From positions 24,242,001-24,306,000 of the forward strand of contig JANJGN010000008.1 of the NCBI GenBank assembly GCA_026770705.1: a stretch of DNA of 64,000 nucleotides, read 5' to 3'. The position numbers were made by a program, and so were the translations under genes. Source of the stretch: Isurus oxyrinchus. Lineage: Eukaryota. The stretch's first letter is position 1, and each line of letters opens with the position of its first letter. Below are positions 7,976 to 54,215 of this stretch, piece by piece. The notes under the pieces were generated by a model. It was not told where the DNA came from. It did no database searches and was given only the letters and a program-made list of their open reading frames with translations.

Positions 7976-8032
7976 CTGTAAATGAAGCTGAAGGACACCA
8001 TTACACATTATTCAGTGAAAGTGAATTTACTT

Positions 8033-13008: not shown

Positions 13009-13095
13009 ATAAAAATAGAAAGTGCTGGAAGTACTCAGCAGATCTGGCAACATCCGTGGAGAGAGAGAAGCAGGGTTAATGTTTCAAGCCAGAAC
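13009..13095 (-). mobile_element. Penelope-like 3' end fragment (old)
   Basis: tgctggaagtactcagcagatctggcaacatccgtggagaga matches the PLE terminus in reverse. Similar fragments occur at ~23352-23447(-), 40185-40315, 40497-40575(-) and 43402-43497(+). Confidence 0.7.
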
Positions 13096-23709: not shown

Positions 23710-25260
23710 TTTTAAAACTCTTCCATGGGATGTAAGCATCGCTGGAAAGAACAGCATTTGTTGCTCATCCCTAATTCACCTTGGGAAGGTGGTAGTGAGC
23801 CGCCGCCTTAAACAGCTGCAATACATCTGGTGTAGGTATACCTACGCTGCTGTTCAGAAAGGTGTTCCAGAATTTTGACCCAGTGACAATCAAGGAACAA
23901 AAATATAGTTCCAAGTGAGGATGTGTGTGTGTGTGGCTTGGAGAGAAGGTGGTGCTATTCCCATGTGTCTGCTGCTCTTGTTGTTCTGGATGGTAGAGGT
24001 CATGGGTTTGGAAGTTGTTCTCGATAGATCCTTAGTGAGTTGCTGGATTGCATCTTGTAGATGGTACACCCTGATGGTACACCCTGCTGCCACTGTGCAT
24101 TGATGGTGGAGGGAGTGATGCTTTAGATGGTGGATGGGGTGCCAGTCAAGTGTGTGTTGTCAAGATGCACTCATCCAGGCAATTGGGGAGTACTCCATCA
24201 CACTCATGACTTGCACCTTGTAGATGGTGGACATACTTCGGGGAGACAAGAGCTGAGTTATTCACCACAGTGTTCCTAGCCTCTGACCTGCTCTTGTAGC
24301 CACAGTATTTATATGGCTTGTCCCCTAAATTTCTGGTCAATGGTTGTCCCCAGGATGTTGCTAGTGGTGAATTCAGTGATGGTAATGCCATTGAATGACA
24401 ATGAGAGATGGTTCAATTTTCTCTTGTTGGAGATGATCATTGCCTGACAGTTGAATATCACGAATGTTACTTGCCATTCATCAGTCTAAGCCTGTATGAT
24501 GGCTGGGTCTTGCTGCATATTGATATGGACTCCTTCAATATCTGAGGAGTCATGAATGGTACTGATGCAATTATCAGAGAACATTCCCACTTCTGACCTA
24601 ATGGTGGAGGAAAGGTCATGAATGAAGGATCAAGGTGGTTGAGCCTAGAACACTACCCTGAGGAACTCTTGCCATGAAGGGCTGATCGACCTTCAACAAC
24701 CACAACCATCTTCCAGTGTGGTAGGTAGGGCTCCAAACAGTGAAGAGTTTTCCCCCTGATTCCCACTGACTCCAATTTTGTCAGGACTCCTTGATGCCAC
24801 ACTTGTTCAAATGCTGCCATAATGTCAAGGGCAATCACTCTCACCTCACCTCGGGACTTCAGCTCTTTTGTCCATGTTTAAACCAAGACTAATGAGTTCA
24901 GGAGCAGAGTGGCCCTGACGAACCCAGACTGAGTGTCAGTGAGCAGGTTATTGCTAAGCAAGTGCTCCTTGATAGCATGGTTGATGACCCCTTTCATTAC
25001 TTTACTGATGGTCAAGTGTAGACTGATGGGGTGGTAATTCACTGGATTGGATTTGACCTGCTTGTTGTGGACAGGACATACCTGCGCAATTTTGCACATT
25101 GTGCCAGGTAGATACCAATGCTGTAACTGTACTGGAACAATTTGGCTGGGGGTTGGCTAGTTCTGGAGCGCAAATCTTTACTACCTTTGTCGGGATGTTG
25201 ACAGGTGATGCAAAGGGTTCGATTTTGAAAGGGGCCTCCTGTCAGGTGTTCAATGTGTTT
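23710..25260 (-). mobile_element. CR1-group LINE family B, RT region
   Basis: CKIAQVCPVH..Q.KSNPVNYHPISL, ALDIMAAFEQVWHQG; same 3' tail at 23710-23800. Confidence 0.9.
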
Positions 25261-27899: not shown

Positions 27900-29600
27900 A
27901 TGGCTTTGGAAGTTGCTAAGACTGTTCTGGGAGTTGGGGATAGAACAGTAGATTGTTTGAAATCCTTGACTGCAGCTAAACTGAGAGAGTTAGCAGATAA
28001 ACTGAAGGTAAAAATAAAGGCAGGATCTTGTTAGAATAATGTGATTAAAGTAATTACCCGGCGTTTAGAATTAAAATAAATTGGTGTGTCATGGCTAGAG
28101 TTAGCTAGGATTCAGTTGCAAATGAAGCAGCTTGAGATAGAAAGAGAAAGGGAGATGAAAAAACTTGATTTGGATGAAAAAGAAAGAAAAAAAATTGAGC
28201 TTGAACTCCAGAGAGAGAAGTTATCAAGGGAGGAAAGAGAAAAGGAATGAGAAAGGGAATAAAAGCTTAGAAGGCTGGAATTAAAAATAGAGGCTTCAGA
28301 TGTTGGAGAAAGCTTTGATGATGGAAGGACTGCGCCCGACACAGAGATGTTTAAATTTGTACAAGCCCTTCCAGATTTTGAGGAAATTGATATAGAAGCA
28401 TTCTTCATTTCATTTGTGAAAGTAGCTAGGCAGATGAAATTGCCAAAAGAATACTGGACATTGCTCCTGCAGTAGGTTAGTGGGCAGGGCTCAAGAGGTT
28501 TATGCATCACTTTCAGAAGATTATGATGCAGTAAAGAAAGCTATTCTTAGTGCATATTAATTGGTCCCTGAGACGTACAGGCAAAAGGTTTGACACATAA
28601 GGAAACACCCTGGGCAGATCTACATTTAATTTGAGAAGGTAAAGCAAAGTAATTTTGACTATTGGATACTGGCATTAAAAGTAGATACTACATATGAAGC
28701 TCTTGGAGAAATAATCCTCCTAGAAAAATGTAAAAAGTCACTTCCTTCAATAATTAGAACCCATGTTGAAGACAAGAGGTTACAACAGCTCGACAGGCAG
28801 TGATGATGACTGATGATTATGAGCTGGTCCATAAATCCAAACCCTTTTTCCATCACCCCCACAAACCCAAGAAGGATAGAATGTTGGGGGGGGGGAGAGG
28901 TAAAAGGAAGGCAAGTAGCCAGGGAAGAGAAGGGACAGCTGGAAATACCCCAGGAACTCATACTCCAGCCAGAAAGGAAGTTGCCATGGGTGGAGTTGAT
29001 GTTCAAAGGTTTAAGTGTATCCATTGTAACAAGGCGGGACACATTCTGGCAAATTGCTGGAAATTGCATGGGAAATCCATCAGACTTATTGGGATACATA
29101 AAAATGATTCAGAAAAAAGAGCCCTAATTGAAAATACAGCAAGTCAAGTTGTCACATTAACTGCAGCTGTGAGTCCAAGTGTGAACACCACTGTGCGTTC
29201 ATGGGTGGTGACTAAGGTACATGAGAGTTATAAAGAATTTTTGTTGTGAGGGAAAGTAACTACTTACCTCTCAATTGAGACAGCTAAACCTATAATTATT
29301 TTGAGGGATACAGGGGCCAGCCAAACATTACTGCTGGGAAAAGACATGACCTTCCCACCAGAGCGTGCATTAAGTGCCAAGGTGTTGGTAAGGAGAATTG
29401 AAGGAGGGCACATGCCCAATCACTTATACTAGGTACACGTGGAGTGCAACCTTGTATCAGGACCGGTGACCATGGGAGTCCATTTTGCCATTGGATGAAA
29501 TCGACCATCTCCTCGGCAATGACCTGGCGGGATCAAAAGTGATAGCGTCTCCAATAGTCGCAGAGAAACCACTGGAATCAAAAGAAGCTGAAAGGGCTGG
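27900..29600 (+). pseudogene. Gypsy (Gmr1-like) gag-protease, degraded
   Basis: Glu/Lys coiled coil; F.KVARQMKLPKEYWTLLLQ..GRAQEVYA...ELVPETYRQ (SCAN-related gag); CCHC knuckle CIHCNKAGHILANC (29016); protease LRDTGASQTLL (29301). Many stops; no RT, IN or 3' LTR seen. Confidence 0.85.
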
Positions 29601-32021: not shown

Positions 32022-33575
32022 ATGACCCTGAAAGGCAAAAAGACTGTAGCCCGCAGGTTCAATGATATGTCCCTCGAGAACTTTTTGGATGCAGTGGAGG
32101 CTCGCTGTGATGTCCTCTACCCCTACTCTAGCCGCAGCATGGCAGCAACTTCACTAATTCGGCTTGGGAAGCCGTGGCAGTGGTGGTCAGCGCCAATGCC
32201 CTTCAAAAGAGGACAGCCACCCAGTGCTGTAAAAGAATGAATGGTCTCATCTGTTCCACCAGGTTAATTCACTCTTCTCATCACTCTCAACTCACACACT
32301 CACAAACACATCACACATCCACAAGGCTTCACATTTCAAGGGACAACACCACTAACTCTCACACTCACCCTCACATCCCCATCAGGATCATATCCTCTCG
32401 AGCTCACGTCCTCACCCTGTCCATGGCTCCGCTCACCATGCAAACATTCCATGCAGTGCCATGTGTCCTGCTCACACTCTATCCATCTGTTTTCATGCAG
32501 GAGAAGTCTGCTCACATCAGTGGGAGAGGTCCCAGGCTGGGGGTGGAGTGGCCCACATTAAACCCCTCACTCACTTTGAGGAGTGTGCCATCACACTGGT
32601 GAGGGCATGCACCGTGCCTGTGGTGACTGAGAGGTCGGCGGTGAACACCCTCGCAAGGATCCTGCACCACATTATCCATCTCTCAATGCAAATGTGTGCT
32701 CTCTCTGCTACTTTTGACTCTGCTGCCATGCACTAATTATCTCTACTTTGGTTCACAGGGAACTCTGCCAAGTGACCGACACCCTCAGCCAGCCAGTCCT
32801 CCGCTCCATCCAGGTCCTCACCTCTAAGTAAGAGGACATCTCCTCCATTGAAGAGCTGGAAATAGGCAGCCAGGAAGACCCATCACAGTGCTTACCCACA
32901 CCCACCACCAGCGCAGAGACACACACCTCGGTGGAACCTAAATCTAAAGCAGGCTCAGATTCACAATTTGATGACCATTGCAGCAGGAGGCAGGTTCAGC
33001 TGAGCTCCCGGGCACTCAGAGACTTGTTGGGGATCAGGCATCAGTGAGGTCTGAGTCAGATGACGAGCTTCTAGATTTGGCCTTCCAACTCATCCTGGAG
33101 AGTCAGCAGAAGGTGTGAGAACATCACACAGAGTTGTTGGAAGCCCTCAATAGAGTGGCTCATGAATCAGAGGAGTGCATCAGCCTGCTCTCTGATGAAG
33201 TGGTGCCCATGTGTACATGTATGGAGGTCTCCATGGGGAGGATGGTGGACACAATGGAGATCCTGGGCCCAGCAGAACATGGAGATGTGTGCAGACCTGC
33301 ACTTCATCGCGCTAGCCATGGGTGAGTTCCTGCAGTAGCAACATGAGAGGGAAACGGCGCACCTTAGCATCTCTCTAGGTGCTCCTTCCCCTCAAGGAGT
33401 CAGGCTGGGGCACCTGTGCATCCAAAGGGTGAAGGAGCGGCAGCTGGAAACCCCTGGGTCATCCAGTCAGGAATCTCATCCACTCAGGAGTCTCAGGGGC
33501 TGTCCACTCCACCCAAGTGCCCTTTACCTGTGAACCCCTCAATCTCATCCTCTGTCACTGCAGAGGTAGCAACTG
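32022..33575 (+). pseudogene. Myb/SANT-like DNA-binding protein gene (Harbinger ORF2), 3 exons
   Basis: Exon 1 32022-32263 (MTLKGKKTVARRFNDMSLENFLDAVEARCDVLYP...W.AVAVVVSANALQKRTATQCCKRMNGL). Exon 2 32501-32652 (tttcatgcag|GAGAAG). Exon 3 from 32759 (ttcacag|G). Intron positions match copy 2. Confidence 0.8.
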
Positions 33576-34449
33576 GCCAATGTGTGATTCTGGAGGGAGA
33601 AGTGTGGGTGTGGCAGGACCTTTCGAAGCCTTGTGCAAGCACTCTCACACACATGTGGATCCATCACGTATCATATCAATGCCCTGAGAATTTTCAATGC
33701 TGCCTGCTTGGGTTTGCTTTCAGTTGTCCATCTGAGCTGACCTGCAACTCTGCCCACCCAATGATCACACTCCCATGCAGCACCTGATCTCACCCACCAT
33801 GACTCTCGTTTCACTTTTGACCCTGGACAGCATGGTCGGGATCTGGTTTCTCATGCACTCCCCATCTTTTCCCCTCCCAAGTCACTAATTTCCTTTCCCC
33901 CATCACAGCTGACCCCCCAGGGATTACCTTCCACCTCCCATTCCATCACAGAAGGTCACCTAGCAGCCGCAGCCCTTTTCCTTCAGAGATGACCAGTTGA
34001 ACCCATATATTCCCTTCCTTCCTGAAAAGCCCACCCCCATCCACATTCGCCTCCCCATATTCCTCATTCCCACTCCCAGGGTCCGTGTCTGCCTCCAAGT
34101 CCCCACTAACCACCCTCGTTGTCCCTTCTACTGCTACCGTCGGACACTGACCCTCCCACCCTACCACATAACTCTGCCCTTGGTCATTTTCGCCATTTCC
34201 TTGTACCACGCCCACCCTCAGTCCTCTCTCCAGGAGTCAGTCATGGGACCCATCAGACCCCTCCTTTGCACATTCACCTGGATGTCCCTTCCTTGGGACC
34301 CCTTCCCCTTGCTGAACCCCTTCCCACCTGGAACCCCTTCACACCGCACCCCCACAACCCCAACTCCCCCCATTTGGACATCCCCCCCACCCCCAGCTGC
34401 TTAATCCCTCTGGATTCCCTCAGACTTCCTCTGCCACCCTTAGTCCTTC

Positions 34450-34680
34450 CCTCACTGACACCTCCCTCCAGCCTTACCTCTCCCTCTAGCCTTACCTTTC
34501 CCTCCAGCCTTACCTCTTCCTCCAGCTTTACTCCTTCCCCCTTCCTGACTCCTTCCTCTGCCCTTACTTCATCCTCTACCCTTACTCCCTCCCCTCTCTG
34601 CACTCCTTCCTCCCCCAGACTTCCTCGCCACTCCACATTCCTCCCTCCCTGAACTCCTTCCCTTACACCTTCCAACCCCT
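34450..34680 (+). repeat. 18-bp pyrimidine-rich tandem repeat inside the element
   Basis: Unit ~ccttacctctccctccag; counterpart in copy 2 at ~7050-7200 (ggaaggagtccaggggga). Confidence 0.75.
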
Positions 34681-36281
34681 TACACTTACCTCCCCCATTG
34701 CCATCTTCTTCCCGTTACCCCCCTCCTCCCCCCATACTCCCTCCCCCCCCTCCCAACCTCACCCTCCCCGACATCTACATTCTCTCCCTGCCAACCTCAC
34801 CCCCACTGACACCTTCATTCCCCCATCCCAACCTCACCCCCCTGATACCTCTTCCTCTCCCAGTTGATCTTAGACCTTCCTCCTCCACCCCCTCGACCAT
34901 CATCCACTGTGAGCATCAATGGTGACTTTCTATCTTCCGTGAGCTGCTTCACAGCAGAGCCAGGACCATGAGAATCCACCCAGCATGCCATGGACGTTCC
35001 TCCAGGATCCCATTGCTGTCAGGCTCCAGTATCTTCTGCTCCTCGGATGTCTGCCCTGTGAGAAAGGCCCTAGCGGCAAGTCCCGACTTATGCACATCAC
35101 AGTTGTCAAGACATTTTCTGCACCAAAACATTAGTGTTTTCCCGCTAACGTGGGCAGTGGCGGGGGGATGAGATTGGCGAGCTGGCCTTATAATATGTTA
35201 ACATATTACAATGAGGTTCCCGATGTCCGATGGCGGGGAATGTGGCCTGCTGAGTGGCCAATTGCAAACTGGTGAAAACGATGTCATGAAATCAATTTTT
35301 GGGCTTCTCGCCATATGTCTGCTCACACCACCAAACACGCCTGACTCCAGCGGGCACAGAAAATTGCAGCCATTGGCAGGCCTGCCGCAGAGCCACTTGT
35401 CACTGAAGGACCATGGAGGAGTCCAGTTCCAGCAAGGCATAGGGTATCATTCAGAGCTTGGAGCCCATCCTTTCCACTGTGGAAATGGTGGCCGACTACA
35501 TGACTGCACCAGTAGACCCTTCCATGATGGAGCATCTGGTGGCTACTGTCGCAGCTTTCCTTCCTGACCTGCTGAATTAGCTAGACGAGGGGGATGGATG
35601 GCTGTTGGGTGGATAAGTCTTTGGCATTCAGACCGCAGCCGGGGAGGGAGTGATTGGAAAGGACTGAAGGGAGAACAGAGACATCAGTGGATGGTCGGCA
35701 AGTAGAGTTCAAAGACTTGAGGGGATATTGGATGCAGTTGGTTCAGGGAAAGAAGGGTTGGGGGTGGATTGGTTTGGATGGCAGGGGAGATGGGGAGGGG
35801 TGCTGGGTAATCAGAAAGGTCGAGTAGGAGATCAGAAAGATTAGATTGGGAAGCCAGATGGGAGTTAGGTGTTGTGAGGGAGATATGAAGGGTTGTAGGA
35901 CGATTGCAAGGACTGGGGAGGAGATCGTGGCAGGAGAATATCCAATCACAGGGAGGCGTTAGGGCTAGGCAGAAGCTGCTACGTTGAATCCAACAAGAAT
36001 GAGGAAAAACACTGGCCTGCTGGATCTGGCATTCTTGTCTCCCTATAGCTACCAGGTTAAATTTAAAATTTGGATTAAATTGGAGGCACACAGCCTCCTA
36101 ATATTTAAATGAGGGATCTGCCTCCTGAAATGTGACCTCCCTTTCTGTCTCCATTCAAACTGGAAGCAACAAGTTTGAGGTATGTTGGGGTCAGATTCAA
36201 GATGTTTATGCAGCATCCCACCTGTCTGATGGGGTTAACGTTCCAGTGTAAGTATTTGACATAAAAAGTATTGGAGAAAGT

Positions 36282-37340
36282 AAAACAAAAACAGAATTAC
36301 CTGGAAAAACTCAGCAGGTCTGGCAGCATCGGCGGAGAAGAAATGAGTTGACGTTTCGAGTCTTCATGACCCTTCGACAGAACTTGATTTCGAGTCCAGG
36401 AAAGAGTTGAAATATAAGCTGGTTTAAGGTGTGTGGGGGGGGGCGCGGAGAGAGAGAGAGAGACAGAGGTGCTTGTGTAGACAAACAAGCAGTGATAGAA
36501 GCAGATCATCAAAAGATGTCAGTGACAATGGGACAAAAGAACACATAGGTGTTAAAGTTAAAGTTGGTGATATTATCTAAACGAACGTGCTAATTAAGAA
36601 TGGATGGTAGGGCACTCAAGGTACAGCTCTAGTGGGGGTGGGGGGAGCATAAAAGATTTAAAAATATTTAAAAATAAGTGGGAAAAGAAAAATCTGTAAA
36701 ATTTATAGGGAAAAAAAAAAGGGGGGAAAAAAAGGGGGGGAAAACAGAAAGGGGGTGGGGATGGGGGAGGGAGCTCACGACCTAAAGTTATTGAATTCAA
36801 TATTCAGACCGGAAGGCTGTAAGGTGCCTAGTCGGAAGATGAGGTGTTGTTCCTCCAGTTTGCGTTGGGCTTCACTGGAACAATGCAGCAAGCCAAGGAC
36901 AGACATGTGGGCAAGAGAGCAGGGTGGAGTGTTAAAATGGCAAGCGACAGGGAGGTTTGGGTCATTCTTGCGGACAGACCGCAGGTGTTCTGCAAAGCGG
37001 TCGCCCAGTTTACGTTTGGTCTCTCCAATGTAGAGGAGACCACATTGGGAGCAACGAATGCAGTAGACTAAGTTGGGGGAAATGCAAGTGAAATGCTGCT
37101 TCACTTGAAAGGAGTGTTTGGGCCCTTGGACGGTGAGGAGAGAGGAAGTGAAGGGGCAGGTGTTACATCTTTTGCGTGGGCATGGGGTGGTGCCATAGGA
37201 GGGGGTTGAGGAGTAGGGGGTGATGGAGGAGTGGACCAGGGTGTCCCGGAGGGAGCGATCCCTACGGAATGCCGATAAGGGGGGTGAAGGGAAGATGTGT
37301 TTGGTGGTGGCATCATGCTGGAGTTGGCGGAAATGGCGGA
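36282..37340 (-). repeat. 1059-bp inverted copy of the PLE 3' region
   Basis: Mirror ORFs in the track are identical except LISS vs LVSS; coordinates pair with a constant sum of 76280. Confidence 0.97.
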
Positions 37341-39505
37341 TTTCCGATGCTGAACGTTCAGTGCTCAGCAAAGGACTTAGTTTCATACCCTTACGCCCTC
37401 ACCTCAATGAATTTCGGGCTCGGCATGATACTGAACTCTTCTTTCGCCGTCTTCGTCTCCGGGCTCACTTCTTTGGGCAGGAGTCCTCTCCCAGTTCAAC
37501 GGATCCTTTTACCCATCTCCAATATTCTCCCTCCACCTGGACCCCTCCCTCTGGATTCTTACCTTCTCTTGATCTTTTCATTGAGAACTGTCGGCGCGAC
37601 ATTAGTCGTCTCAATTTCTCTGCTCCTCTCACCCATTCTAACCTGTCTCTCTCTGAACTTACTGCACTCCATTCTCTCAGGTCCAACCCTGACATTGCCA
37701 TCAAACCCGCTGACAAGGGTGGTGCTGTTGTTGTCTGGCGCACTGACCTCTACCTCGCGGAGGCTGAGCGTCAACTCGCAGACACTTCCTCCTACCTCTC
37801 CCTGGACCATGACCCCACCACTGAACATCAGGCCATTGTTTCCAGGACTGTCACTGACCTCATCTCCTCTGGGGATCTCCCTCCCACAGCTTCCAACCTG
37901 ATAGTCGCCCAACCTCGGACGGCCCGCTTCTATCTCCTACCTAAAATCCACAAACAGAACTGCCCCGGTAGACCGATCGTCTCAGCTTGCTCCTGCCCCA
38001 CAGAACTCATTTCTCGTTATCTTGACTCCCTTCTCTCTCCCCTTGTCCAGTCCCTTCCCACCTACATCCGTGATTCCTCTGACACCTTACGTCACATCAA
38101 CAATTTCCAGTTCCCTGGCTCCAACCGCTTCCTCTTCACCATGGACGTCCAATCCCTCTACACCTCCATCCCCCACCAGGATGGTCTGAGGGCCCTTAGC
38201 TTCTTCCTCGAACAGAGGCCCGAACAATCCCCATCCACCACTACTCTCCTCCGTCTGGCTGAACTTGTTCTCACGTTGAACAATTTCTCCTTCAACTCCT
38301 CTCACTTTCTCCAAATAAAAGGTGTGGCTATGGGTACCCGCATGGGCCCCAGCTATGCCTGTCTCTTTATGGGATATGTGGAACATTCCTTGTTGCAGTC
38401 CTACCCCGGCCCCCTTCCACAACTTTTTCTCCGGTACATCGATGATTACTTCGGTGCCGCTTCATGCTCTCGTCGGGACTTGGAAAAATTTATTAATTTT
38501 GCTTCCAATCTCCACCCCTCCATCATTTTCACGTGGTCCATCTCTGACACTTCCCTTCCCTTCCTTGACCTCTCTGTCTCAATCTCTGGTGATAGACTGT
38601 CCACTAATATCCATTACAAACCCACCGACTCTCACAGCTACCTCGACTACAGCTCCTCACACCCCGCTTCCTGTAAGGACTCCATCCCATTCTCCCAGTT
38701 CCTTCGCCTTCGTCGCATCTGTTCCGATGATGCTACCTTCAAAAACGGTTCCTCTGACATGTCCTCCTTCTTCCTTAACCGAGGTTTTCCACCCACGGTC
38801 GTTGACAGGGCCCTCAACCGTGTCCGGCCCATCTCCCGCGCATCCGCCCTCACGCCTTCTCCTCCCTCCCAGAAACATGATAGGGTCCCCCTTGTCCTCA
38901 CTTATCACCCCACCAGCCTCCGCATTCAAAGGATCATCCTCCGCCATTTCCGCCAACTCCAGCATGATGCCACCACCAAACACATCTTCCCTTCACCCCC
39001 CTTATCGGCATTCCGTAGGGATCGCTCCCTCCGGGACACCCTGGTCCACTCCTCCATCACCCCCTACTCCTCAACCCCCTCCTATGGCACCACCCCATGC
39101 CCACGCAAAAGATGTAACACCTGCCCCTTCACTTCCTCTCTCCTCACCGTCCAAGGGCCCAAACACTCCTTTCAAGTGAAGCAGCATTTCACTTGCATTT
39201 CCCCCAACTTAGTCTACTGCATTCGTTGCTCCCAATGTGGTCTCCTCTACATTGGAGAGACCAAACGTAAACTGGGCGACCGCTTTGCAGAACACCTGCG
39301 GTCTGTCCGCAAGAATGACCCAAACCTCCCTGTCGCTTGCCATTTTAACACTCCACCCTGCTCTCTTGCCCACATGTCTGTCCTTGGCTTGCTGCATTGT
39401 TCCAGTGAAGCCCAACGCAAACTGGAGGAACAACACCTCATCTTCCGACTAGGCACCTTACAGCCTTCCGGTCTGAATATTGAATTCAATAACTTTAGGT
39501 CGTGA
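37223..39505 (+). CDS. PLE reverse transcriptase + GIY-YIG endonuclease (chimeric N-terminus)
   Basis: LSKGLSFIP, KPADKG, YLLPKIHK, GRPIVS, MDVQSLYTSIP, QIKGVAMG, RYIDD, LPFLD; Cys linker CPRKRCNTC; VYCIRC..C..LYIGET, RFAEH, E...I..LGT....GLN. No stops. Confidence 0.93.
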   Translation: MEEWTRVSRRERSLRNADKGGEGKMCLVVASCWSWRKWRISDAERSVLSKGLSFIPLRPHLNEFRARHDTELFFRRLRLRAHFFGQESSPSSTDPFTHLQYSPSTWTPPSGFLPSLDLFIENCRRDISRLNFSAPLTHSNLSLSELTALHSLRSNPDIAIKPADKGGAVVVWRTDLYLAEAERQLADTSSYLSLDHDPTTEHQAIVSRTVTDLISSGDLPPTASNLIVAQPRTARFYLLPKIHKQNCPGRPIVSACSCPTELISRYLDSLLSPLVQSLPTYIRDSSDTLRHINNFQFPGSNRFLFTMDVQSLYTSIPHQDGLRALSFFLEQRPEQSPSTTTLLRLAELVLTLNNFSFNSSHFLQIKGVAMGTRMGPSYACLFMGYVEHSLLQSYPGPLPQLFLRYIDDYFGAASCSRRDLEKFINFASNLHPSIIFTWSISDTSLPFLDLSVSISGDRLSTNIHYKPTDSHSYLDYSSSHPASCKDSIPFSQFLRLRRICSDDATFKNGSSDMSSFFLNRGFPPTVVDRALNRVRPISRASALTPSPPSQKHDRVPLVLTYHPTSLRIQRIILRHFRQLQHDATTKHIFPSPPLSAFRRDRSLRDTLVHSSITPYSSTPSYGTTPCPRKRCNTCPFTSSLLTVQGPKHSFQVKQHFTCISPNLVYCIRCSQCGLLYIGETKRKLGDRFAEHLRSVRKNDPNLPVACHFNTPPCSLAHMSVLGLLHCSSEAQRKLEEQHLIFRLGTLQPSGLNIEFNNFRS

Positions 39506-39895
39506 GCTCCCTCCCCCATCCCCACCCCCTTTCTGTTTTCCCCCCCTTTTTTTCCCCCCTTTTTTTTTTCCCTATAAATTTTACAGATTTTTCTTTTCCC
39601 ACTTATTTTTAAATATTTTTAAATCTTTTATGCTCCCCCCACCCCCACTAGAGCTGTACCTTGAGTGCCCTACCATCCATTCTTAATTAGCACGTTCGTT
39701 TAGATAATATCACCAACTTTAACTTTAACACCTATGTGTTCTTTTGTCCCATTGTCACTGACATCTTTTGATGATCTGCTTCTATCACTGCTTGTTTGTC
39801 TACACAAGCACCTCTGTCTCTCTCTCTCTCTCCGCGCCCCCCCCCACACACCTTAAACCAGCTTATATTTCAACTCTTTCCTGGACTCGAAATCA

Positions 39896-39935
39896 AGTTC
39901 TGTCGAAGGGTCATGAAGACTCGAAACGTCAACTC
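39896..39935 (+). ncRNA. Minimal type-I hammerhead ribozyme motif (core CUGUCGA)
   Basis: agtt / CTGTCGA / agggtc-atgaa-gactc / GAAA-c-GTC / aact: stem I, stem II and palindromic ACGT stem III. Mirror copies at 36345-36384(-) and ~46878-46917(-). Confidence 0.75.
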
Positions 39936-41344
39936 GTTTCTTCTCCGCCGATGCTGCCAGACCTGCTGAGTTTTTCCAGGTAATTCTGTTTTTGTTTTGC
40001 ATTTCCAGCATCCGCAGTTCTCTTTGTTTTTATATTGGAGAAAGTAAAGTTTGTGGATCAAAATCGTGCATCATGCATGTGGTTCTTGATAATGTAGATA
40101 CAGTATATGGTATTTCAGACCACCTTACATTCTAAAAATAGGAAAATTGGCTTCATCACACCAAAATCTCTCTGTAGAGTACAAGAGCAAAATACAGCAG
40201 ATGCTAGATATCTGGAATAAAAATAGAAAATGCTGGATAGCAGGTCAGGTAACATCTGTGGAGGGAGAAACAGAGTTAATAACCTGAGTGTTTCCAGCAT
40301 TTTCTGTTTTTATCTCTGTGTTAAACGTTAAGTTTCCTTCCAGCTGTAGGACAAATGCCTTGAGTCCTTTTTTTACAAAATATTGGTAAGTCAAAAAAAA
40401 GGCATTATGTATAGAACTCAATTCTGCTATGAGGGAATTTCACCTATGCCATAACTAAATTCCTTTATTTCAGTTGTTGAATGAAGAAAATAGTCATAAA
40501 AACAAAGAAGTGCTGAAAATACTCAGCAAATGGTAGCATCTGTGGAGAGAAAAACAGAGATAATATTTTGAATCGAAAAGCCATAATAGTTTCAGACATC
40601 AAATGGTAGCTGCAGCTTGTTCCTCCACTAAATTCAGTAATGATGGTACGAGAGGGGGGACTGGGCAGAGGACTAGTTTTGTGTTAGTAAGTAGAAATTT
40701 TTAGGAATGGACAAAAACATGCAGCTCAGCAAGACTCTCCATTTTTGGTGGATCAGTTGTACTTGATGTTAGGTAATTGGCTGAGTACAGAAAGCCTTGT
40801 TTTAAATCCTGGCAAAGTGCACTTTTCAATGGTGGGTAAAATGCCTGATAAAGGCAGCTTTCATTGGGTAGTCTCTCTCTTTCCATGCACCTTCTCACCA
40901 TAGCTCCATTCTTTCTTTCCCCAGAATTACATAATTGTCTCAATCAATTTTTATTGTCTGTTTCAATGTTTACTGCTAACTTAATTTGCAACTCTATTAC
41001 ACATTGGGTGATTTTTTTTCTCCCTGACAGACTTCCTTTCTTACTCCAAACTTCCTAATTTTTCATTTGAATCCAATACTGTTGAACCCTACAACGCTGA
41101 ATAATTCATCTGGATCAACTTTATTGACCTCTTCATGATGGTGAAAAATGCAACTAGATTAGATCAAAGTCTCATCTTTGGCCAGTGTTCAAGAAGAACT
41201 TGAATTGATTAATATCTTTATAAGTGGCCAGTGAAACTCTCCCTTTCTCTCACTAACATGTTAAGTGATGTCACTATCAGGGCTTACATCAGAAGAGCTC
41301 TTCCATTCTTGCAATTCACACATGGGATCATTGTAACCATCAGC

Positions 41345-41585
41345 TGTAATATAAAGGGTTAACAGAATGGATATGCTAATCCATGAGGTACGTGATGATG
41401 TAGCACTGACATCAGGCAGTCATGTATTCTAGGCAGCAGATATGCATCCCTGAGGGGAGATGTGCCTTCCCTGTAACCCATTATGTGTATACTGTAAATA
41501 ATGTAAATAAACTAGGTTTTACGTAAATACCTTGTTACACCTACAGCTCTTCCTTATTAGAATCCAATTAGCACATCTACAATAT
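41345..41585 (+). mobile_element. Possible solo LTR
   Basis: Starts tgtaatat, internal aataaa, ends ...ctacaata; flanks tcagc/tcact only partly match. Confidence 0.35.
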
Positions 41586-42293
41586 CACTGATTCCAGAAA
41601 AGACAGTTATTAACAGCCCACCTCTGAGTTGGGGCAAGTTACTTAAATGTAACTTTTTACAGAGAGGAGAGAAAAAAAAGAGACAAATTATATGTATTTG
41701 CTGACTTTGAATGTTACTTGATTGAAAAACACTTGTGTCTGATGACTTTGTAAATTAAATCTCAAACTTTGCCACTTCTCACCCTCCTGACTGTTTTGCA
41801 GCTGAATAACATACTCCAAGTCAAGTGCTTTTAATTGTGAAAATTGAACAGAGTTGAGAGCCACCTGGTATGTAGTTTTAGCAGGTAATACCATTTTCAC
41901 TCATGCATTTACATCAACTTGTACTGGGTTATCACTGACATCACAATGCATGGATGTGAGGTAATACCTAGAAATCTATAACTTACATAAAACCATGGCA
42001 GAGTGCATAACACATCGGCTTACCAATGCTCTGCACTGACTGCACATGCTTACAGTTTTCATTTGGTAATGCTCTGATCTGATTTAGCCTTTGGAGGATT
42101 CATCAATTCTTCAAGCAGAAGCCAAATAAATACCCAGATATGAATGGCACTTGAGCTAGGCTACTCTTATTCAGATTATTTGACCATCTTAATTTGGATC
42201 TATCACTAGACAAAATCACATGGGCAAGATAATTGGGCCAATTTTCAGCAAATTCATCCAGAAGGGAGTATGCAGTCGCCATCACAAGATTCT

Positions 42294-42434
42294 CTGGCTT
42301 GGCCTAAATAGCCAAGTGGTTATGGTACTGGGTTTGTAACCACAAGATCGAGAGTTCAAATCTCACAATAGCAAACTATGAAACAATGTAACTTCATCTG
42401 AAACAGATGGAAATGGGTTTGTGCTCGAAAGAGT
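42294..42434 (+). mobile_element. tRNA(Thr-UGU)-like SINE, 141 bp
   Basis: 13-bp TSD atcacaagattct (42281-42293 and 42435-42447); A box tagccaagtgg, B box gagttcaaatc, anticodon loop tttgtaa. Confidence 0.85.
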
Positions 42435-45400
42435 ATCACAAGATTCTTAATTGATTCCTGGGTTTTTGTCCCTACTGATCTGTACAATTCTCTCCATGTG
42501 TTCATTGTATAAAGATCTTACTGACATTAATCCAAAATGTGCCCTTTTATAGTTTGTGCTGGTGCCTGGTAACCCTAATTTCATAACTCAGTTTGAAATA
42601 GTTTTCTAGATTTAACTTTTCTCTGTCATTTACTACCTTGGATGTCTTCATGAGATCACCTTTCACCCATTCAAGAAAGATAGAGAATTTATGGTTAAAA
42701 TAAAGAGTAACAACAGTGCTAGGTAACTTTGTCACTTCATCTTACTCTTAGAGACACTACGGCAAATCTTCAGCATTTAAATCATCTGGACACAGAAACT
42801 GTGAAAGCCCAAATTCAAAAACGAGACTTATTTATGAAAGCATTATTTTAAAAAAGGAACCAAAATGGAGATATTTTTCACTAATAGCAATGGAGTTCTG
42901 TTGGTGAACATTGCATGAAAATGGATGAACAACTACCCTTTAGATCTGTGATGTTACAATTCTGTAATCTGCATTTGCTCACTTATATTATTCTGCGTAA
43001 ATGTATCTTATCCTTATGTGTTCTGTGATAACAATTTTATTTTTAAAAACTTGACCACCTTATCGTGAAATTATTGGTGCTCGTGTTGACTTTTTTCACT
43101 AAAATTATAATTGGGATGACTTTTGCTCACATTGAAGCATATGTTTGTTCAGTTTAATATCAAATTTCAGCAGCTTCTCTGTAATTACCATATGCATTGA
43201 AATCCCTGAAGATTTCTCAAATTTTTTTAAAATCCAGTTTTGAAGTTTCAAATTTGGCTTAGAATTGGAAGGTTGTGGCTTCAATATATAACAGTCCAAT
43301 TACAAAACATGCCGTGGCATGATTGGAGAGCAGGAACTTCTCTGGCCTTTTGTATCTCCTATCCAACATCACGAGAATATAGATTATCTTGGATTTATAT
43401 CATGTTCTAATGAAGGGTCATCCACCTGAAATGTTAACGCTGTTTCTGTCCTGACCTTCTGAGTGCATCCAGCATTTCTGTTTTATTTCCATTTTTATCA
43501 TTGTTGCTTACAGGAGCTTGCTGTATGCAAATTGTGTGCCATATTTCCCTCCATTGCAATATGAGAACATTTTAAAGCATTGAAATGACTAATGCTTTAG
43601 GGTGCCCTGATGTGCTGAAAGGTGCTGCGTACATGCAAGTTCCTTCTTTTTAATATGTTACCTGATAACCTAGTTTGGACAGACTAAGGATCTTTGTTGG
43701 CATCTTGCTGGAAGCAACTGTCAAGAAACAAACCTACCAGAAAGAAATTGAATAAATTGAAGGAAAGTATTTAACATCAAGGTTTATTAGCATACTGAAG
43801 GGAGAAATACCTAAAATAAAGAAATTGAGGAATTCAGAGTCTCTGGTGTTAAAACTTGAATAGCATTCTTATTAAATGACCCCTGTTTACAAAAGAAAAG
43901 GCAGGTGTTTGTATATGTTTTATGTGACTGGGTTCTTTAGCTCTGAACTCTGGGAATCAAACCAAGCCTGTCGTCTGAGTGTGGACATAAGTTGTTTTGA
44001 CATTTGCTGAAATGTTATTACGCAATGGTTCTAATCAAAAAGAAACATCCCTAAAGAAAAGACTCAAAGTGAACGTGTCGGGGTAGTGATATGATTTTGT
44101 CTGATCTTTTGTGTATCCATAGTTACCATGTGCTAAATGATGTTGTCAAATGATTTTTCAAAACTGCTCAATCAAATTAGTGGCTCATACAGAACCTATG
44201 CCACATATAACTCAGCAAATTTAAGTCATTTAGGACATTTATTCCCAAGGCACATTTAATAAGTTACTGAAGTCATGTCCTCTTGTATTGGATGTCTGTA
44301 AATGACAGGCCTTCTTCCATTTCTAAACCATATACAATCAGGTATTAAATTTTCCAGATTAGTTGGTTGGTAGCTCCCATGAGGTATTGGAAAAAATTAT
44401 GACCAAAGAAAGTTGAGCAATATTCTGGGGTAAGTTTTAATGGGTGACTGCTTGTTTTACACCAAAAGGTGGGTGCTAGCCCCATGAAAATTGAAATTCA
44501 GTTTTCACCTGCCTATTCCACATTGGAAGTGCATTTTTAGGTGAGGCTTCTGTTATGGACAGAATTTGTGTAGTCCCTTCCAGTCCCTAATCAGGATGTT
44601 TGTATGTAAGGCGTGTGTATTTCCTAGCTCTAAGAGTGATTTTCACTAATTTAAAATAAATTCCTGCAGCAGGCTTTTTGGTGATTTTAAAAATAAAAAG
44701 GTAATTTATTACCACACCCTTGCCCCAAATGTTTGAAACACAATGTCTCAATCACTCATCTCACTCACACTATCACACGTGCAAAGATTAGATACAGATG
44801 AAGTTAAAGCAGTGATTATTAAAATGGAATTTATAACTCTGTGACTATGTTGATGTAGGCCTGATGTCATCTTAGTCGAGTTAATACTTCAGTTGGGGTG
44901 AAGGTCTTTTAGAAATAAAAGATTCTCATGAAGCTGCTAAGCCTCTTATAGATAAATAGCCAGTAGATTGGTTCTCGAGTGGTCTTGGAAGCTAAAGCAA
45001 GTACAGCACTTTGGCTGCATTGGAAGACTTTCAGCAGTTTCAGATGTTGCTTGGTGCTTCAGATGTTTCTCTCTCAGATTTGCTCAACTCAGGTTGTATT
45101 AAAATGCAGTCTCAACCCTAATTAACATGTTCTGCACATTGCACCATATGGACAAGGTGACAGTAAATTCGTATTTGAGGAAATGATTCAACATTTGCAA
45201 CCCAAGTAAACTGCTCAAGATATTTTCCATTCTGTAAGAGTATGCCTGGGTGCATGATATTATTCAATATAATTATTTCACACAAGGGATGTAATATGAT
45301 TCTATTTTATCAGTAATCTCGCAGGGCAGAAGGATTATATGACTCCTGAGCAACAAAGTGGAATGATTAAGCAACTTAGGTCTTCACTGTCATTGAGAAG

Positions 45401-45559
45401 CATTGGAGCCCTCAGGTGGCTCTGCGTGACACAACTTTCAAGAGACCAGAGGACAAAGACTGAATGATTCACAATTCTAGTTTCATTTTTCTTGATCTGC
45501 AAGTCTGAAGACCCTGCTGATTGCTGCTTCTCGCCACAATATATTTTCAATATCTATTA

Positions 45560-46300
45560 AGCAACTCACTTTGCCAGTCTTTGGGAGCAACATGAGTGGT
45601 ATTCGCCACTAACAGGATGCTGCCATCAAGCCAAAAAGATGTTCTGCCCATCATACAAATGAGTAATGTGGTATATGAATTTCAATGTCAGTGTGATGCT
45701 GTACACCCCAAAGTCTGGCAGACCATATCAAGCAACATGTCCCAGTCGCTGTTCGCAACAGGCAAGGTAGAGACTTTACCCGACCAGTCTGTTCTTGCAA
45801 AACTCAAAACATATTGCCCAACATTAGATGTGATTCCACGATTGGACAACATTTGCTAAACAATCCTCAGTGTGCTAAGAATTACACTGATGGCCAATTT
45901 AAGATTGTCAATCGAGCTTGCCGTGTGGCGCATTTGCGTGTACTGGGAGCTACATATATTAATACACAGGGCCCTGTGCTTTGCAGACAGAAAGAACATT
46001 GGACCTATTTCAGGTAAACAAAATAAGTGACAGGATTTGGTGACTCTTCCTCAGGGCAATGCCTTGACCAATCAGGATCAAGCTGCCTGGTTTGAATTTC
46101 AAACATTGTTTGGCAGTTAAATGTCAGTCACCATCACTGGTGCATTCTCCATGGCAATGCCTCTATCAAGCAGAGTTCACTTGCCAACCATCAGCATTCT
46201 CTTCTCATACAGTATAAATTGTTGTTTTCCCCTTATTTTGGTCTTCTTGCAAAGTGTCCTGATGAGTGCAAGACAAAAATCTTTGACATGTCTCTTTTTT
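45560..46300 (+). mobile_element. Penelope-like family 2 (Poseidon/Penelope-type), GIY-YIG region and 3' end
   Basis: KDVLP..QMSNVVYEFQCQCDA, STIGQHLLNNP.C, P.LCRQKE; hammerhead tgtc-CTGATGA-gtgcaagac-(g)AAA..tttgaca at ~46255-46288. Confidence 0.85.
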
Positions 46301-46386
46301 CACCTTCCAGTGAGCTTGCCTGATTTTAGTGGACATCTATTAAAGGATGCAAATGAGGGTCTAGTAATTGTTTAAGGACACAACTA

Positions 46387-47288
46387 GGGGAGAATTTTCT
46401 TCTCGTCAGGATCGTGTGGGGGTGGGCGCAGGCGGGCGCACAGCCGATTGGTGCCCCTGATCAGCTGGACACCGCCATTTACGTGGGTGGGCCAATTAAG
46501 GCCCACCCAGCGTGACGCGCGCCGGGAAGCGCTGTGCACTCCCTGTGCGGGTGGGGGGAGGTTGCCTGAGTCGGGAGTGTGCTCTTTCGCACATGCGAGG
46601 CACCTCTGTGCCTCAGGGAGATTAGTTTTAAGTTTAAACAGTTTAATAAAGTGTTGAAAAAATTTTATGACGTCCCCACATGTGAAACTGTCAGATGAGC
46701 TGGGACATGTGCGTTAATTTTAATGAAATTTTTTCTGAAAATTTTAAATCATTCATGAAACCTCATCTCGTTCCATGAAAAATGCAAAAGCCACCTGGAC
46801 TTTTCACCTCAACAAAAACAAAAGCAGAATTACCTGGAAAAACTCAGCAGGTCTGGCAGCATCGGCGGAGAAGAAAAGAGTTGACGTTTCGAGTCCTCAT
46901 GACCCTTCGACAGAACTTCGAAACGTCAACTCTTTTCTTCTCCGCCGATGCTGCCAGACCTGCTGAGTTTTTCCAGGTAATTCTGTTTTTGTTTTTGTTT
47001 TGGATTTCCAGCATCCGCAGTTTTTTTTGTTTTTATGGACTTTTCACCTGCCCGCCAACCTAAAGATTGGACGGGCAGCTCAGCTAATTGCCATAATTGC
47101 TTTTTAACAGATCTTAATAGGCCTGTGACAGTTCGGCAGGCACGCAGCCGACTCCACTGCGCGCCCGCTGAACTGAAAACCTAAATGTCGCACGGCGACA
47201 TCGGGACGTACGCCCGACATCACCCCACATCATTTTATGCCTTGGCGAGCGAGCCCCATCCCCGCTCGCTGAGCCGAAGATTCTGCCC
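46387..47288 (+). mobile_element. Harbinger-type MITE containing a nested mini-PLE
   Basis: ggggagaatttt ... agattctgccc termini; homologous to 60265-60964; flanked by aacta on both sides. Confidence 0.85.
46810..47035 (+). mobile_element. 226-bp fold-back mini Penelope-like insertion
   Basis: 14-bp TSD tggacttttcacct (46796-46809 and 47036-47049); inverted arm 46811-46918, forward arm 46918-47035; near-identical to 39895-40032. Confidence 0.95.
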
Positions 47289-47629
47289 AACTAATATTTT
47301 CAAGAGCCTTACCATTTAGTTCATCAGTTCTACATTAAACCCACAGATCATGGGCAGGAGCAGTTGGTCTGGTGTCATTTCTATTGTTACCTAAGAGCTG
47401 CATCAGCTGCTGTCAGGTAAATAAGTGATTAGTTCTTTTTGGATTTTAATATATAAATTTTGATATTTTCAAGTTGTTGGATCTGACTCTAAACTTACTA
47501 AAAGTGAATCTGGACATACCGGACATTGTAATTTTGATCAGGAGCAGGTTGGTGTTGTGGCCATTGGTATATGATTGTGACTGAAGAATAGAAAGGAGAA
47601 GAGCATGAAACAATAGTCCTGACACGAGC

Positions 47630-48235
47630 CTCTGCAGAGAAAGAGGCGGGAAGTCTATCCCATTGGCATACAGAGGTCAGGAGCATCATACTGACAGTCC
47701 AGCAAAGAGCACTTTAAGGAGTCTCCACTTTATCAGAGAGGCTGTCACAGAGCTATGTCACTCATCTCATCATCAGCTGCAGCCCAACAAATCTCACACT
47801 CATTCTTACCTCGGACTTTGAAAGCCATTGTCACCCTGAATTTTTTTAATGCCTTGAGATATTTCTCAGTTGAAGCAACATTTGTCAATTGGCTGTTCAT
47901 GCCTGCAACAACCAGGTGATGGATATGCTCTTTCCTGGGGTCAGTGACTTGAACTCTTTCCCTTTCAAGGATAGGAAGCAGGAAGGGAGACTTCTGGGTT
48001 TCGCCAGAACTGTGATCTCCCCAGAGATGCAGGCCATCATCAACTTCACACATGATCTTGTGAGCTCTACCACAAGACCCTGGAATATGGATCAACAGGA
48101 AGGGCTTCTACTTGCCAAATATGCTGTTGCTGTTAGTCAACATGCAACACATCATGCAGGTCTTTGCCAGGTAGCTTGGCAGCTGTTAGGATGCCTTTAT
48201 CCCACACCAGTCCTCAAATCCTGCTCTACCATCCA
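47630..48235 (+). pseudogene. Harbinger/PIF (HARBI1-like) DDE transposase relic
   Basis: LRSLHFIREAVTELCH; AVHACNNQVMDMLF...SFP...GFART..SPEMQAIINFTH; INRKGFY..NMLL....QHIMQVFAR*LGSC*DAFI, matching IDCTH / NRKG.HS.NVQ / PGS.HD of HARBI1-type enzymes. Confidence 0.8.
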
Positions 48236-49849: not shown

Positions 49850-51510
49850 CACAGAATCACAGAGTGCAGAAGAGGCCCTTCGGCCTATCGAATCTGCACC
49901 GACATGTGAGAAACACCTGACCTACCTACCTGATCCCATTTACCAGCTCTTGGCCCATGGCCTTAAATGTTATGATGTAGCAAGTGCTCATCCAGGTACC
50001 TTTTAAAGGATGTGAGGCAACCTGCCTCCACCACCCTCCCAGGCAGTGCATTCCAGACCATCACCAGCCTCTGGGTAAATTTTTTTTTCCTCACATCCCT
50101 AAAACTCCTGCCCCTCACCTTGAACTTATGTCCCCTTGTGACTGACCCTTCAAATAAGGGGAACAGCTGCTCCCTATCCACCCTGTCCATGCCCCTCATA
50201 ATCTTGTACACCTCAATCAAGTTGCCCCTCAGTCTTCTCTGCTCCAACAAAAACAACCCAAGTCCATCCAACCTCTCTCCATAACTTAAATGTTTCATCC
50301 CAGGCAACAAGCTGGAGAATCTCCCTGCACTCCCTCCAGTGCAATCTCATCCTTCCTATAATGTGGTGACCAGAACTGCACACAGTACTCCAGCTGTGGC
50401 CTCACCAAGGTTCTATACAACTCCAACATGACCTCCCTACTTTTGTAATCTATGCCTCAATTGATAAAGGCAAGTGTCCCATATGCCTTTTTCACCACCC
50501 CACTAACATGCCCCTCCGCCTTCAGACACACACGCCAAGGTCCCTTTGTTCCTTAGAACTTCCTAGTGTCATGCCATTCATTGAATACTTCCTTGTCAAA
50601 TTACTCCTTCCAAAGTGTACCACCTCTCACTTTTCAGAGTTAAATTCCATCTGCCACTTATCTGCCCATTTGACTATCCTGAATATATTGTCCTGTAGCC
50701 CAAGACACTCAACCTCACTATTAACCACCCGGCCAATCTTTTTGTCATCCGCAAACTTACTAATCCTACCCCCCACATAGTCATTTATGTCGTATATATA
50801 AATGACAAATAATAGGGGACTGAGCACAGATCCCTGTGGTATGCCACTCGACACTGGCTTCCAATCACTAAAGCATCCTTCTGTCATCATCCTCTGTCTC
50901 CTACAACTAAGCCAATTTTGAATCCACCTCATCAAATTACCCTGTATCCCATGTGCATTTGCCTTCTTTATAAGTCTCCCATGTGGGACCTTGTCAAAGG
51001 CTTTGCTGAAATCCATATAAACTACATCAACTGCACTGCCCTCATCTACACACCTGGTCACCTCCTCAAAAAATTCAATCAAATTTGTTCAGCATGACCT
51101 CCCTCTGACAAAGCCATGCTGACTATCCCTGATCAAACCTTGCCTCTCCAAGTGGAGATAAATTCTCTCCTTCAGAATTTTCTCCAATAGTTTCCCTACC
51201 ACTGACATGAGACTCACTGGCCTGTAGTTCCCTGGCTTACCTCTACAACCCTTCTTAAATAGCGGAACCACATTAGCTCTTCTCCAGTCCTCTGGCACTT
51301 CCCCCATGCTCGGAGAGGAATTAAGAATTTGGGTCAGAGCCCCTGCGATCTCCTCCCTTGCCTGCCTCAGCAGTCTGGGACACAAATCATTTGGACCAGG
51401 AGATTTATCCACTTTTAAGCCTGCCAACATCTCCAATACCTTCTCACTCCCTAAGTTAATTTGCTTAAGAACCTCACAGTCTCTCTCCCCAAGTTCGATA
51501 CCTTCATCCT
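49850..51510 (-). mobile_element. CR1 LINE ORF2 RT, 5'-truncated
   Basis: DKSPGP..L.PRLL, VPEDWR.ANVVPLFKKG, VYMDFSKAFDKVPH, GIPQGSVL.PLLF, KFADD. Confidence 0.95.
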
Positions 51511-52284
51511 CATAGTTGGACAGGAAAGTTGTGGCTGTGCAGCAGAGCCTCCCTGCTTGACCAGGAGGCTCTTTGATTGTAGATGCAGCATTGTCATCTG
51601 ACAGCAGGTTTCACCACTGAAAAGCTTCCTCTGCTACTAAATCGAATATGTATAGCATGCACACCACTGGCATTTAGAACTTTAATCATAATCACATCGG
51701 AAAAGGCAAAATGAGAGAAAGCAGAAGTGGCACATTATCCTGGTTACGACGTCAGGAATGGTATGCCATTGACAAAATCCCAGCCAATAACTTCGATCTT
51801 CCAGTTGGAAGAAGTCTGTGTTCATCCAGGACTGAATGTTGAACAAATAATGTGACCAATCAATGGAGAGGTTCGAGAAAGATAGAATTGGTTGCCATCA
51901 GTGTACATTAACCTGACATTGTGTTTTCAGATATGTGGCTGAGTCTGCCTTCGCTCCATATCGCTTGATCCCTTGATACTCTTACCCAAGAAAAATCTAC
52001 CTACCTCACACTTGAATGCTCTACTTGTCCTAATGATCAGTCTTATGTGGGAGGGAGTTTCAAATTTCTATTGCCCTTTGCGTGGACAAAAAAACAAATA
52101 ATTCAATTAATCTGCAATTCCCAGCAACAATTTCTAGCTCTGTTTTACAAACAGGTTTAAATTGAGTTCCTTCCTCCACTCTGCCGAACAGCATCTATAA
52201 TAGATGGGAATAAGTTCCCTTTCACACAGAATCACAGTGCAGAAGAGGCCCTTCAGCCCATCGAGTCTGCACCGACACTTTCAT

Positions 52285-54099: not shown

Positions 54100-54215
54100 A
54101 CCATTATAGTGTGACATAACCATCATGGTGTGACATGACCATTATAGCGTGACATAACCATCATGGTGTGACACGACCATTATAGCGTGACATGGCCATT
54201 ATGGTGTGACATGAC
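54100..54215. repeat. 19-bp minisatellite x6 with alternating 38-bp higher order
   Basis: accattatagygtgacata / accatcatggtgtgacayg alternate. Confidence 0.95.

Follow-up and report, generated by a model that had tools for sequence, protein, structure and literature searches.

A 64,000-nucleotide stretch of the Isurus oxyrinchus genome (contig JANJGN010000008.1, positions 24,242,001 to 24,306,000, forward strand; this whole stretch is the window below) contains a Penelope-like element (PLE) whose truncated reverse transcriptase (RT)–endonuclease gene is joined in frame to a start codon from an inverted copy of its own 3' end. We regard it as very probably a young, 5'-truncated insertion of Neptune/Nematis type, carrying the standard inverted arm, tail and target-site duplication (TSD) and probably produced by priming from both ends of the target. 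The initial annotation, made from the sequence alone, had suggested that the inversion rescues coding capacity. We find instead that a conserved domain of ~175 amino acids (aa) is gone, that the new leader is no substitute for it, and that the start codon is present at chance level: most likely a frequent accident, a by-product of reading the element's antisense strand. Having lost its promoter-proximal 5' end and ~175 N-terminal residues, the copy is therefore most likely non-autonomous and untranslated.

Anatomy of the insertion and origin of the inverted arm

The insertion is built around two arms that are reverse complements over 1059 nucleotides (nt), with a single mismatch (36344/39936) and a loop of 1599 nt between them; the pairing can be extended to 1064 nt if outer mismatches are allowed. 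A perfect 16-bp TSD flanks the whole, a 16-mer that occurs twice on the + strand of the window and nowhere on the - strand, and the right side alone carries 34 extra nt missing from the left arm. The initial annotation had recognized the lone substitution between the arms, the perfect TSD and the abrupt start of the sense body, where arm and body meet head to head; it had overlooked the right-side tail and a second ATG in frame with the first. The components are as follows.

36269..36284 (+): left TSD, 16 bp, by repeat comparison; its last 3 nt, AAA, are also the start of the arm
36282..37340 (-): inverted 5'-truncated copy, 1059 nt, holding the last 187 codons of the open reading frame (ORF), the 3' region/pseudo-LTR (pLTR) and the ribozyme-like motif, without the tail; its 3' end lies leftward
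36346..36384 (-): minimal hammerhead-like motif of the left arm, an exact copy of 39896-39934, facing away from the ORF; a candidate only
37223..37340 (+): antisense-derived leader of 39 codons, with ATG 37223 in strong context and a second in-frame ATG at 37295; no homology, low model confidence
37340..37341 (no strand): head-to-head inversion junction, with at most 1 nt of microhomology
37341..39505 (+): 5'-truncated sense ORF body, aa 40-760, with RT, Cys linker and GIY-YIG motifs
38940..39998 (+): right arm, the reverse complement of 36282-37340
39506..39998 (+): 3' non-coding region/pLTR, duplicated in the left arm
39896..39934 (+): minimal type I hammerhead-like motif, matched manually; non-canonical core base (U for A6)
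39999..40032 (+): 34-nt one-sided tail, typical of PLE insertions (PMC8557442, PMC11167929)
40033..40048 (+): right TSD, 16 bp, by repeat comparison
46796..47049 (no strand): mini insertion of the same family, 254 bp, with a 14-bp TSD, an inverted tail-less arm and a tailed sense arm

The overlap of the TSD with the start of the arm is likely to be microhomology used in priming. The sole difference between the arms is a CG to TG transition at a CpG, on the + strand of the left arm. At the inversion junction we see no palindrome; the break interrupts a conserved VxTIPxDLxL motif, and upstream of the ORF the insertion contains the inverted arm only, a direct (tandem) pLTR copy being absent. This combination of inverted arm, one-sided tail and TSD is a pLTR-type organization and the usual one for PLEs: in PMC8557442 the 5' end bears an inverted, 5'-truncated copy and one end a 30-40-bp tail, PMC3846280 shows the same layout with a 31-bp tail and 9-10-bp TSDs, and PMC8969392 includes it in a curation guide.

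The layout recurs in the mini insertion, where a TSD (46796-46809 and 47036-47049) encloses an inverted arm (46811-46918) and a sense arm (46918-47035) with a 36-nt tail, the two meeting with 1 nt of microhomology. It is 92-97% identical to the large element's end, and to within 2-3 nt its breakpoints coincide with the two sites seen in the large copy. The left arm of the mini insertion extends ~23 nt further 5' than its right arm, and the tail is found on the right arm alone; since each arm thus holds sequence that the other lacks, neither was copied from the other, and two separately primed complementary DNAs (cDNAs) are required, barring later deletion. The mini copy folds as a 150-nt hairpin and resembles microRNA models in Rfam below their cut-offs, matches that we dismiss as merely reflecting the hairpin; an Rfam scan of 35500-48000 gave six matches, every one under its gathering score.

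The probable pathway begins with the element's GIY-YIG nuclease, which would cut the two strands 16 bp apart and leave target 3' ends that could each prime reverse transcription on element RNA. From a distal start at 40032, one cDNA would run for 2.7 kb and stop inside the ORF; from a proximal start at 39998, 34 nt upstream, the other would run for 1059 nt. End joining would then unite the two cDNAs head to head and gap filling would yield the TSD, the templates being either a pair of separate RNAs or a pair of units within a single tandem RNA. In PMC11167929, purified anole PLE protein is reported to cut and extend both strands, starting at two sites that bound the tail.

The initial annotation spoke of fold-back. 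As an origin of the arm this would mean that the 3' end of the first cDNA annealed to itself 1.6 kb away and copied its own 5' part. For the large copy this is geometrically possible, its arm being wholly contained in the body and nearly identical to it, and PMC3846280 argues for self-priming in PLE copies with palindromic junctions. The large-copy junction, however, lacks a palindrome, and where the cDNA would fold back no more than 1 nt is complementary; copying would have to end precisely where the tail begins; the 3 nt shared by TSD and arm are better explained by target priming; and the mini copy cannot have arisen in this way. We therefore consider fold-back unlikely. An assembly artefact, from a chimeric or fold-back read, is extremely improbable: long inverted repeats of PLEs are known to disturb assemblies, but such a read would have to mimic a perfect 16-bp TSD, a one-sided 34-nt tail, a CpG-type difference between the arms and an independent mini insertion with the same layout.

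Near the 3' end, the candidate hammerhead was compared by hand with features listed in PMC4209133. Stem II folds, an extra base follows A9, and G10.1-C11.1 and a palindromic 15-16 region are present, with U at core position 6; no Rfam hammerhead model matches 39896-39934 at E up to 1. Just 5' of the tail lies a splice-donor-like CCAG|GTA (39976-39985), kept in the large, mini and 2.8-kb copies, which would fit an intron across the pLTR boundary as reported for other PLEs.

The chimeric reading frame and the domain it lacks

As the initial annotation stated, the ORF at 37223-39505 runs for 760 aa with no internal stop and contains RT, Cys linker and GIY-YIG regions. The antisense arm contributes codons 1-39 plus one base of codon 40, its first, from the strand opposite the element's linker region, and ATG 37223 has G at -3 and G at +4, so that the 39 stop-free antisense codons and the strong Kozak context are likewise as claimed. 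Pfam recognizes RVT_1 at aa 249-413 (E 6e-8, above cut-off) and GIY-YIG at aa 663-697 (E 7e-4, under cut-off). By position, the N-terminal GxKF-like motif (GLSF, aa 51) and DKG (aa 164, 37712), both belonging to endonuclease-bearing (EN+) PLEs, are followed by RYIDD (aa 404, 38432), by a CX4CxxC linker that is conserved in relatives (aa 626-634, 39098-39124) and by a GIY-YIG domain with CCHH (aa 662-707, 39206-39343), in which C669, C672, H691 and H707 surround GIY/YIG-like strands. The element thus shows the single ORF with telomerase-like RT and C-terminal CCHH-bearing GIY-YIG of an EN+ PLE. Structural comparison agrees: the best matches of the ORF model are TERTs (Foldseek, E 8e-11), and the model of a full-length relative aligns with TERT (Z 16.0, root-mean-square deviation (rmsd) 4.4, 311 aligned) and, through aa 791-886, with I-TevI (Z 11.5, rmsd 1.8, 91 aligned). 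A search of PDB sequences with that relative returned three chance matches and no solved PLE protein.

Within the EN+ PLEs, PMC8557442 describes the Penelope/Poseidon clade as without the CX2-5CxxC linker that Neptune and Nematis possess, so by this criterion the CX4CxxC linker would exclude Penelope/Poseidon and points to Neptune or Nematis, either of the two. The earlier label, Penelope, is sound as regards EN+ PLEs and gives way at the level of clade. The nearest named proteins, 65-73% identical, come from Chiloscyllium punctatum (P0002, P0025), Rhincodon typus (P0071) and Mobula hypostoma (P0112). In a quick tree of 31 rows, made up of proteins without labelled Neptune, Nematis or Poseidon reference elements, the Isurus element and the cartilaginous-fish proteins form one clade (SH-aLRT 100), an affiliation that by itself points to a cartilaginous fish as the probable host. 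These relatives are all partial gene models; P0002 retains 83 residues ahead of the cut, and among them is the VFTIP motif lost from the Isurus copy.

What precedes the cut in an intact protein was gauged from relatives, with upstream residues counted relative to S41. In a first set of 120, 93 align from residue 60 or earlier; these have a median of 174 upstream residues, with more than 39 in 85 of the 93 and more than 150 in 58. Among 56 relatives chosen for at least 150 upstream residues and a complete C-terminus, the lost part has 27 columns conserved at 70% or above and a motif, K-T-R-x2-S-H-x2-F-x3-C-x5-I-P-x-G, whose F, C and P occur in 56/56; the P of VxTIP is likewise invariant. A profile of the lost part matches 78/85 long relatives (56 of these by construction) and 20/27 further long relatives from a separate search, and finds no match in the window or in the 40-aa leader. 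The lost domain is modelled as three long helices (10-41, 62-109 and 112-145), mostly at a model confidence (pLDDT) of 88-96. In the anole PLE (PMC11167929), dimerization is predicted to occur through an extended helix (27-173), and a putative nucleic-acid-binding domain is assigned to this region; by analogy, the same role may extend to the clade of the Isurus element.

The Isurus copy therefore does not carry the complete ORF, with its N-terminal helical domain, expected of an autonomous PLE. Relative to homologues, a conserved N-terminal domain of ~175 residues is missing, and the 39 antisense residues neither resemble nor replace it. The leader is modelled at pLDDT 39-59, and a search with its 40 aa, confined to proteins of 418-1330 aa, produced one candidate and none at E up to 10; short local matches of the leader to relatives' endonuclease ends (best E 0.02, 8-9 residues) were judged to be chance. 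The initial annotation had itself named missing essential N-terminal domains as counting against a rescue. Measured against relatives, in place of a family consensus, a conserved domain is indeed missing, and it is presumably needed for function.

How readily such a start arises was estimated by shifting the junction stepwise through the antisense strand of the element, in each of the three frames, and counting arms that reach into the ORF. An in-frame ATG precedes any stop at 2846/6495 simulated junctions (44%), and one in strong Kozak context (purine at -3, G at +4) at 1509/6495 (23%); for arms of 800-1300 nt the counts are 823/1503 and 543/1503, and at the observed arm length three of three frames have an in-frame ATG. 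Codon-shuffled controls (30 shuffles) give 31% for any ATG, 13% for a strong one and 4% for a strong one 38 codons out or further. In-frame ATGs are thus somewhat more frequent in the real antisense strand than in its shuffled counterparts, but the observed junction needs no selection. With an ATG at about 40-55% of simulated junctions, the caveat already attached to the initial annotation, that the fusion may be chance, proved apt.

Several observations weigh against reading the copy as a standard insertion with a disabled gene and an accidental start. Only 9% of the simulated junctions have a strong ATG as far out as 38 codons or beyond. Loss of the N-terminus was gauged on relatives at 42-55% identity, the 56-row set was selected for length, in 32/185 relatives the upstream part is no longer than 39 residues, and a more distant relative set has a median of 88 (truncation or an internal start call may account for such short rows); a search for a full-length shark N-terminus gave 3 matches from 73 candidates, none longer upstream than P0002. 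What remains of the protein is nearly perfect: 159/160 highly conserved positions are retained in aa 41-760, modelled at pLDDT 91.8. In four of the five top telomerase rows, the RT alignments of the full-length relative begin at about residue 165-168, and its telomerase-like region begins only ~9 residues ahead of the cut. With the retained part so well preserved and the telomerase-like ring starting so near the cut, the catalytic core may well fold and work, and the clipped enzyme could be catalytically sound, if the protein were made. As for its making, PMC3846280 proposes bidirectional pLTR promoters without direct proof; and the biochemistry of PMC11167929 concerns another clade (Poseidon).

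Expression, hairpin RNA and age

In PLEs, ribozyme and tail mark where the following tandem unit has its 5' part (PMC11167929). If this anatomy applies here, the element's own start would face outward, away from the ORF, in both arms, so that + strand RNA would need host read-through or an antisense pLTR promoter. A Pfam scan for host genes, covering 150 of the 228 ORFs of at least 70 aa, returned one match, an RT fragment, and no host domain, a survey that short exons would escape. A crude regular expression for a polypyrimidine-AG acceptor found none on the + strand of 36000-37345, and no daughter copies sharing the junction occur within the window. Sixteen ATGs in the arm precede 37223, five of them in strong context, and the right arm pairs with the 141 nt surrounding the new ATG (about -330 kcal/mol). 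A 13-codon upstream ORF (37182-37225), whose own context is strong, terminates at a stop codon sharing bases with the new ATG (TGATG).

These features bear on functional rescue, in which an antisense pLTR promoter or host read-through would supply the RNA, ATG 37223 would be used, and the chimeric RT-endonuclease would be active in cis or in trans. The open 760-aa frame with its strong Kozak context, the near-complete telomerase-like core with intact catalytic motifs, the bidirectional promoter proposal and the possible re-initiation layout at the overlapping stop all speak for it, as does precedent: for retrocopies made by L1, 5' inversion has been put forward as a way in which new genes originate (Kojima and Okada 2009, cited in PMC2877012 and also listed in PMC3747384). 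Set against these are an ATG expected by chance, the loss of a conserved helical domain whose anole counterpart is the predicted dimer interface (PMC11167929), the upstream ATGs, the stable pairing of the start region, the lack of a host gene domain in the ORFs scanned, and the lack of any second protein with the leader among proteins of 418-1330 aa. We judge rescue highly unlikely; a search of open-licence literature, in which absence is not proof, revealed no published PLE whose start codon is supplied by an inversion. Slighter still is the chance that inverted, truncated copies, with an in-frame ATG available at about four in ten junctions and should their inverted pLTRs fire inward, form a steady source of N-terminally clipped RT-endonucleases, the Isurus enzyme acting in trans on other RNAs or poisoning the full-length protein; such an enzyme would be cut almost at the start of its telomerase-like core and would be without the helical dimer/RNA-binding domain.

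If the copy matters at all, it might do so as a source of hairpin RNA, serving as an endogenous small interfering RNA (siRNA) or A-to-I editing substrate that helps to silence the family, a role compatible with a standard, untranslated insertion. Any transcript across the copy would form a 1059-bp hairpin, making it at most a source of double-stranded RNA; the initial annotation's ~1-kb hairpin thus stands as a potential. Near-perfect arms and the long hairpin of the mini copy are in favour, and hairpin-derived siRNA from inverted Penelope copies is already known, siRNAs having been mapped to inverted regions in Drosophila transformed with Penelope (PMC3681739). Against it, no host gene was found to drive read-through (short exons would be missed), and the lone substitution, a CpG transition, fits methylation and silence. 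We consider this role rather unlikely.

One difference in 2 x 1059 sites corresponds to an age of ~6.7e5 generations (95% range 1.7e4 to 3.8e6) at 7e-10 per site per generation, a rate from another species, the epaulette shark (PMC10587355). The CpG site or an RT error would make the copy younger than this estimate, and conversion between the arms would make it older. The description of the insertion as very recent therefore holds for sequence divergence (1/1059), and not necessarily for years.

Neighbouring repeats and relation to known elements

The window also holds six older, diverged pLTR-end remnants of the same family, at 2518-2891 (+), 12997-13090 (-), 23355-23434 (-), 40187-40279 (-), 40507-40572 (-) and 43401-43484 (+), with nhmmer E from 2e-43 to 1e-4 and nothing below 0.3 in five controls; none has a convincing TSD or inverted partner. 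A decayed relic of another PLE probably lies at 61811-63198 (-), with a weak RT match by tblastn (63198-63088, E 0.003) and an ORF (61811-62185) that by eye looks like an endonuclease end and has no Pfam match. Long interspersed nuclear element (LINE) RT fragments, which we take to be CR1/L2-like, occur at 50627-51610 (-) and 24656-24877 (-) (RVT_1, E 5e-19, 2e-6 and 3e-4). An ORF at 28770-29249 (+) has a CX2CX4HX4C knuckle and no Pfam match; we presume it to be gag-like, probably an LTR-retroelement fragment. Two diverged copies (74-87%) of a 2.5-kb repeat, at 6500-9100 and 32690-35130, stand in opposite orientation ~24 kb apart and carry purine-rich 18-19-nt tandem units; a tandem array at 54100-54213 has about six copies of a 19-nt unit.

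In a vertebrate PLE outside Poseidon, two insertions 7 kb apart thus share their two start sites and a one-sided tail; the mini copy favours target priming from both ends over fold-back, with a modest bearing on the unsettled mechanism of PLE integration. For annotation there is a warning: antisense arms yield spurious ORFs that look complete. Were the chimeric protein made and active, it would exemplify a way for truncated retroelements to recover a reading frame.

The closest known systems are Neptune and Nematis, which, as described in PMC8557442, share with the Isurus element the single ORF, DKG, RT, Cys linker and CCHH-bearing GIY-YIG, as well as 5' truncation, an inverted 5'-truncated copy and a 30-40-bp tail on one side; the Isurus copy differs in having no direct upstream pLTR, a break within the ORF and a leader of 39 antisense codons acquired by accident. 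The Poseidon element PAc of Anolis carolinensis (PMC11167929) likewise has two reverse-transcription start sites that bound the tail, an AT-rich target, a ribozyme motif just 5' of the tail (in the Isurus copy a hammerhead-like candidate) and, in its full-length protein, long N-terminal helices. Its clade, Penelope/Poseidon, is without the CX2-5CxxC linker that the Isurus element has, and the PAc ORF starts inside the ribozyme, whereas the Isurus ATG in the matching loop reaches a stop after 18 codons. Adineta vaga Pen2/Pen2a (PMC3846280) resemble the Isurus copy in their inverted pLTR, 31-bp tail, 9-10-bp TSD and 5'-truncated members between inverted pLTRs; their arms, however, are of ~200 bp with often palindromic junctions, in contrast to a 1059-bp arm that reaches into endonuclease coding sequence and a 1599-nt loop. 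Beyond PLEs, L1 twin priming and 5'-inverted retrocopies (PMC2912911) share priming from both target ends, a head-to-head join and a TSD of ~15 bp; there, by contrast, what is inverted comes from further upstream in the same RNA, the 3' end is not duplicated, and a long hairpin therefore does not form.

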